64,000 nt of DNA from Escherichia coli (lineage in GTDB: Bacteria; Pseudomonadota; Gammaproteobacteria; Enterobacterales; Enterobacteriaceae), in NCBI RefSeq assembly GCF_051903065.1, contig NZ_CP178438.1. One strand, 5' to 3'. Under the pieces are notes generated by a model. It worked only from the letters and a program-made list of their open reading frames with translations, was not told the DNA's origin and ran no database searches. Shown here in pieces: positions 36,759 through 36,881 of the stretch. The position numbers and the translations under genes were made by a program. Position 1 is the first letter of the stretch. Each line of letters opens with the position of its first letter.

Positions 36759-36881
36759 ATGCACGGTAATTCTGAAATGCAAAAAATCAACCAAACCAGC
36801 GCAATGCCTGAAAAAACTGACGTTCACTGGAGTGGTCGGTTTAGCGTTGCACCAATGCTCGATAGGATGTACCGTTTTTGA
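36759..36881 (+). pseudogene. dusA: Displaced 5' fragment of dusA (tRNA-dihydrouridine synthase A) at prophage left junction
   Basis: ATG at 36759 encodes MHGNSEMQKINQTSAMPEKTDVHWSGRFSVAPMLD (dusA N-terminus from memory), then diverges (RMYRF-stop at 36881). Confidence 0.75.

Follow-up and report, generated by a model that had tools for sequence, protein, structure and literature searches.

A displaced dusA 5′ end as the probable attL junction of a dusA-integrated temperate prophage in Escherichia coli

The 5′ end of dusA is a target of tyrosine integrases which insert prophages and islands there, replace it and leave 21-bp semiconserved imperfect repeats (Farrugia et al. 2015, NAR 43:4547, PMC4482086). 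Table S1 of that study lists the 'Phage lysogen' of ETEC H10407 (NC_017633.1, 4684277..4723914) as a dusA-specific element, and prtN was found to be frequent, but not universal, in these elements (60/94; Farrugia et al. 2015, PMC4482086). In E. coli, an integrated IMEVchUSA3 provides dusA with another promoter and with another 35 N-terminal residues (Durand et al. 2021, PLoS Genet 17:e1009669, PMC8409611), and it is for IMEVchUSA3 only that promoter activity of the replacement dusA 5′ end has been shown experimentally (Durand et al. 2021, PMC8409611). The same work describes RdfN, a PrtN-domain recombination directionality factor, which is required for Int-mediated excision and is encoded across attP from int (Durand et al. 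2021, PMC8409611).

Stx phages, too, are known to integrate in dusA. At another gene, icd, phage e14 replaces the 3′ end. SXT integrates in the 5′ end of prfC (cited in Durand et al. 2021, PMC8409611). Like the dusA elements, SXT and e14 take a housekeeping gene as their target and supply a replacement gene end, and the host keeps a working copy; they differ from the dusA elements in their integrase families and targets and, for e14, in the replacement of the 3′ and not the 5′ end.

Here we describe a locus of this kind in a 64,000-nucleotide stretch of an E. coli genome (hereafter the window). Our preferred reading, to which we give a probability of roughly 0.93, is that positions 36759–36881 are the attL left when a dusA-specific tyrosine integrase (DAI / IntdusA) inserted a temperate phage in dusA codons 33–35. 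An earlier note, made from the letters of this DNA, had pointed to the dusA 5′ end as the target of an integrase family, a view which the published catalogue and its H10407 entry bear out (Farrugia et al. 2015, PMC4482086). The element is one more example of a type that has been catalogued before and whose mechanism is known, and not a new kind; the only points that may be mildly new are the candidate arm sites and a possible promoter capture by the Panacea-domain module. The locus is nonetheless a textbook case of a phage that inserts in a housekeeping gene and carries a spare gene end.

The H10407 element is alike in its insertion point, its displaced 5′ fragment, its imperfect att repeat, its identical att arm, the Panacea and PrtN genes by the junction and the overall prophage layout. 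It differs from the element in the window by an extra CoiA-like gene after the small ORFs, and by its immunity region, lysis cassette and head genes. IMEVchUSA3 and the Vibrio dusA elements share with the window the dusA target, a PrtN-domain protein and the attL/attR naming; unlike IMEVchUSA3, the element in the window is a temperate phage that has a tail and a cI/cro-type switch. About one in seven complete E. coli genomes (737/5,426) share the junction of the window, counted as those in which at least 80% of a 92-nt probe across the crossover and conserved arm is covered.

The host side of the junction is made of the following features.

36396–36758, + strand: native intergenic region upstream of dusA, still joined to the displaced fragment (continuous homology to uninterrupted loci)
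36759–36862, + strand: displaced host dusA 5′ fragment, codons 1–34 and two bases of codon 35 (DNA and protein identity)
36759–36881, + strand: chimeric 40-codon ORF, with 35 DusA codons, 5 phage codons (RMYRF) and a stop

The ORF translates from the window DNA to MHGNSEMQKINQTSAMPEKTDVHWSGRFSVAPMLDRMYRF*. The earlier note had held that the ATG at 36759 opens the DusA N-terminus, and that the frame then diverges and stops at 36881, and both statements stand: residues 1–35 are an exact match to the annotated 345-aa DusA of a K-12-like strain, 36759–36862 is identical to dusA of that strain at 104/104 nt (locus L001, 2959–3062), homology ends at 36862, and RMYRF and a stop follow. Such a match cannot be due to chance. 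In a wider alignment, 36700–36862 is identical to the uninterrupted dusA locus except for one upstream base, and similarity collapses past 36862. When 36300–37100 was compared by megablast with the 5,426 complete E. coli genomes, thousands of dusA matches ended at query base 563, which is window position 36862. The genes upstream of the fragment (mal operons, ubiCA, plsB, dgkA, lexA, dinF, yjbJ, zur and a DUF2713 gene) form the usual dusA neighbourhood. The native intergenic region includes whatever promoter and ribosome-binding site normally serve dusA; a consensus promoter scan of 36396–36758 located no dusA promoter.

The chimeric ORF is a remnant without dusA function. In EcPF16, MB53, H10407 and EC4115, RefSeq gives the equivalent fragment as a pseudogene, 'tRNA-dihydrouridine synthase, incomplete, missing C-terminus', and in annotation the 40-codon ORF should be labelled as a displaced dusA 5′ fragment at attL and not as a gene. 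Directly 5′ of dusA, the DUF2713 gene (35373–36395, + strand) is an intact ORF of 340 aa in the window; the annotations of the K-12-like strain, EcPF16 and MB53 give it as frameshifted. No other part of the host flank is as divergent from the K-12-like strain, the identity being ~95% here.

Where did the strand exchange take place? The recombination sites can be set out as follows.

36849–36872, + strand: attL, the imperfect repeat GCACCAATGCTCGATAGGATGTAC, with its left half from the host and its right half from the phage (alignment with attB and attR)
attB, in the uninterrupted dusA of the K-12-like strain: GCACCAATGCTCGACTGGACGGAC
attR, in MB53: GCTCCTATGCTCGACTGGACGGAC
36855–36862, + strand: strand-exchange interval ATGCTCGA, covering dusA codons 33–35

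The earlier note had proposed an alignment with an uninterrupted dusA as the way to find the crossover. The four-way alignment of attL (window and MB53), attB (K-12-like) and attR (MB53) places it within ATGCTCGA (36855–36862), because the nearest bases that discriminate host from phage are 36854 and 36863. The breakpoint, 36862/36863, lies in codon 35 of dusA and is the same as that of the catalogued H10407 element, whose listed interval begins, at 4684277, with the last base of the partial dusA pseudogene annotated in that genome; we recommend it as the left boundary of the prophage in annotation. A search of the 64-kb window with the pattern GCWCCWATGCTCGA returned a single copy, at 36849–36862, with no second att copy, and the window contains no tRNA genes that could act as alternative att sites. 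A second att repeat is present in MB53, H10407 and EC4115, and the window holds the attL copy (36849–36872) only.

Read from attR and attL, the attP site would be TCCTA-TGCTCGA-TAGGA, in which 7 bp separate the two arms of a perfect 5-bp inverted repeat, and the attP junction contains GCTCCTATGCTCGATAGGATG. An inverted repeat around the overlap region is the usual core-type layout for tyrosine recombinases. Judging from this pattern and its conservation, the two arms of the repeat are candidate core-type integrase binding sites, and TGCTCGA (36856–36862) is likely the 7-bp overlap.

Under the lambda convention, int adjoins attL. We considered whether 'attL' was for this reason a wrong label and rejected this, since the dusA literature calls the rebuilt-dusA junction attR. 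The designation of the present junction as attL in the earlier note agrees with Durand et al. (2021), where the junction with the rebuilt dusA is attR. In the attR of O157:H7 EC4115 (locus L016, ~11400–11430), the 12 nt to the left of the core are of the host type, GCGTTGCACCA, and not of the phage type, GCATTGCTCCT, which lengthens the stretch identical between attL and attR; a different attP allele or a tract of gene conversion may account for this.

On the other side of the breakpoint lies the prophage itself.

36863–64000, + strand: left ~27.1 kb of the prophage, which continues past the end of the window (collinear with MB53)

The claim of the earlier note that phage genes follow the fragment thus holds for the whole of 36863–64000. 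We also looked for an intact dusA continuing from 36863, which that note had named as the case against its reading; it is absent, and the next ORFs are prophage genes. The interval 35985–64000 is collinear with the prophage of E. coli MB53, the identity being 99.1% along a stretch of 17 kb, 97.2% along the next 10.5 kb and 99% across the junction. With the exception of a single replaced segment (~53037–53518), the two are continuous: 42/45 of the MB53 CDS tested align at or near full length without stops, and the prophage genes in the window all look intact. They begin with the Panacea-domain module, PrtN, an exonuclease, an ea22-like gene, yfdPQR, a cI/cro switch and replication genes, and go on with methyltransferases, RusA, Q, lysis genes, a P27-type small terminase, TerL, an HK97-type portal, protease and capsid, and a Mu/SfV-type sheath and tube. 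The phage combines an HK97-type head with a Mu/SfV-type contractile tail, the element measuring ~40 kb in the closest relative. Among phage records it comes nearest to the myovirus vB_EcoM-720R4 (81% coverage, 97.4%).

Around the replaced segment, the lysis genes and small genes downstream are swapped with respect to MB53 (52948–53520): two small ORFs of MB53 have no counterpart, and its spanin-like gene aligns over the first 40 residues only. This difference is a typical mosaic cassette swap.

The far end of the element is visible in the relatives. In MB53 the element is ~39.7 kb long and ends with DinI and a 365-aa tyrosine integrase, followed by a divergent, intact dusA of 345 aa, pspG and qorA. 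The first 104 nt of this rebuilt dusA are a diverged, phage-borne copy that agrees with that of the host at 86/104 nt and 26/35 aa. MB53 DusA is of the phage type in its first 35 residues and of the host type from there on. MB53, ETEC H10407 and EC4115 share the order dusA′ pseudogene, cargo, PrtN, DinI, tyrosine integrase and intact dusA; EcPF16 has the dusA′ pseudogene, cargo, DinI and the integrase, within which the examined stretch ends, before any dusA. The MB53 integrase (locus L003, 9549–10646) is 99% identical to the H10407 integrase ETEC_4358, which is listed as a DAI. PHROG annotates it as integrase, and a search with NCBIfam returned no specific model, only generic tyrosine-recombinase matches below cutoff.

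From these relatives and from the published work, attP would carry a diverged dusA 5′ end and a promoter. Carrying its own dusA 5′ end, attP would on recombination with attB rebuild a full-length dusA at attR, next to a divergently oriented integrase, and the original 5′ end would be left stranded at attL as a dead 40-codon ORF. The integrase, attR and rebuilt dusA of this genome would lie beyond 64000, by extrapolation from the relatives; if the MB53 length holds, the right end is expected near 76,000, ~12 kb past the window, in agreement with the earlier note, which had placed it outside. The rebuilt dusA would carry 104 phage-type nt and then host sequence after GCTCCTATGCTCGA. With a rebuilt copy expected at the far junction, an annotation of dusA as disrupted should be avoided for this genome.

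Excision would restore the native gene, and would need the integrase together with a PrtN-domain factor. A gene for the latter, which does not appear in the earlier note, is found close to the junction.

38369–38647, − strand: PrtN-domain protein of 93 aa, RdfN homologue (Pfam PF11112, E=5e-23)

The product has 100% identity to its MB53 counterpart, which carries a PrtN-family annotation. With this gene, one component of the recombination machinery is present inside the window.

The evidence considered so far also bears on other explanations of the fragment. An old, true dusA-specific integration could since have had its right part deleted or rearranged, with neither integrase nor rebuilt dusA remaining and with the fragment as the only gene start left. 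The right end does lie beyond the window, and decayed elements are found at this site in EcPF16 (~21 kb, many pseudogenes) and EC4115 (a 10.9-kb remnant). However, these decayed elements still keep DinI and the integrase, EC4115 keeps an intact dusA as well, and the 27 kb in the window run collinear throughout with a prophage that looks complete, no ORF being disrupted, so that we consider such a loss improbable. Given that the integrase persists even in decayed relatives, this genome's element very probably has an intact right end; on the other hand, EcPF16 and EC4115 being decayed remnants, an intact and inducible prophage is not guaranteed here.

A reading of the 40-codon ORF as a functional small gene, or as a chance DusA look-alike, in either case unrelated to phage integration, might appeal to the ATG, the native upstream region and the open frame, which are all kept. 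We find it hardly credible: the 104 nt and the entire upstream neighbourhood are those of the native dusA locus, the five extra codons come from a conserved phage att arm, the fragment is called a pseudogene by RefSeq in four genomes, and the peptide shows no sign of selection. It seems equally far-fetched that the dusA 5′ end was duplicated without site-specific recombination, by the target duplication of a transposition or by homologous recombination between prophages. Two dusA 5′ copies do flank the element in relatives, but they are only 86/104 identical, the phage-side copy travels with phage records, four independent genomes that differ in cargo all switch between host and phage sequence inside the same 8-bp core, and it is a tyrosine integrase that adjoins, with no transposase at the junction. 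Integration of a temperate phage by a dusA-specific integrase, with attL at 36759–36881, is thus the reading that we retain.

The phage-side sequence next to the crossover is conserved well beyond MB53, and contains a pair of repeats.

36863–36923, + strand: phage-derived att arm, common to dusA-integrating elements with differing cargo beyond it
36904–36913 and 36915–36924, + strand: direct repeats GTGGGAGCCT and TTGGGAACCT, 11 bp apart, candidate arm-type sites

The arm is identical in MB53, in H10407 and in the lambdoid phage record PhiR40_1 (PV340560.1), and near-identical, with three mismatches, in the O157:H7 EC4115 remnant. EC4115 diverges from the window after 36923 and PhiR40_1 after 36925, and in the megablast search with 36300–37100 many genome matches stop at query base 624, that is at window 36923. 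PhiR40_1, which is siphovirus-type, and the NleG-carrying EC4115 remnant share with the window the att arms, the GGGARCCT repeats and the PrtN gene, and with its relatives the DinI-int module; their genes for head, tail and cargo are different. Phages that are otherwise unrelated exchange the integration module as a cassette.

In the 64-kb window, GGGARCCT occurs three times on the + strand and not at all on the − strand. In relatives, the spacer of ~90 bp that separates int from the surrogate dusA start contains GGGAACC three more times, once in inverted orientation. As the repeats are clustered on both arms and conserved across mosaic phages, we suggest them as arm-type sites, those at 36904–36924 probably being bound by the N-terminal domain of the integrase. 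The searchable literature on arm-type sites of dusA integrases offered incidental co-mentions only, and no description of GGGARCCT repeats.

The first cargo genes after the arm are arranged as a small module, which ends shortly before the convergent PrtN gene.

37117–37689, + strand: Panacea/SocA-like antitoxin-domain protein of 190 aa (Pfam PF13274, E=3.7e-19)
37686–38105, + strand: soluble protein of 139 aa, its gene overlapping the Panacea gene by 4 nt
38145–38318, + strand: conserved 57-aa ORF, phrog_2741 (a PHROG of unknown function)
38337–38362: strong terminator-like hairpin after the 57-aa ORF, between convergent genes

The PHROG matches of these first cargo genes (37117–38318) are of unknown function. 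PanAT modules pair a Panacea-domain protein with a neighbouring, co-oriented toxin gene whose product it neutralises; here the Panacea-domain gene overlaps a co-oriented 139-aa ORF lacking a recognisable toxin family. The stretch 37117–38105, the first cargo after attL, is a candidate PanA-PanT toxin-antitoxin pair. The 139-aa partner itself (37686–38105) matched no Pfam, PADLOC or named PHROG family, and a PADLOC defence-system search with the four att-proximal proteins gave no match. In PhiR40_1 a different pair, annotated YafM/YafO, occupies the same position, and the Panacea position therefore looks like a swappable slot. The hairpin at 38337–38362 could act as a terminator for the Panacea-domain operon as well as for the PrtN gene.

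On the + strand, no terminator-like hairpin is found from 36462 to 38337, and transcription from the orphaned dusA promoter could therefore enter the Panacea-domain gene and its 139-aa partner. If this were true, a host promoter would power an accessory operon of the phage in the lysogen. The joint proposal, that five GGGARCCT repeats are undescribed arm sites of the E. coli IntdusA, that the overlap is TGCTCGA flanked by TCCTA/TAGGA, and that the native dusA promoter reads through into the Panacea module, is put forward tentatively, and from the sequence we judge its chances to be somewhat below even.

Farther into the prophage, we noticed a small LexA-family protein of 108 aa (47109–47432, + strand) and two DNA methyltransferases (46459–47109 and 51020–52072, both + strand), one of the N6-adenine type and one of 350 aa. 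These proteins might have an effect on SOS signalling or on restriction evasion.
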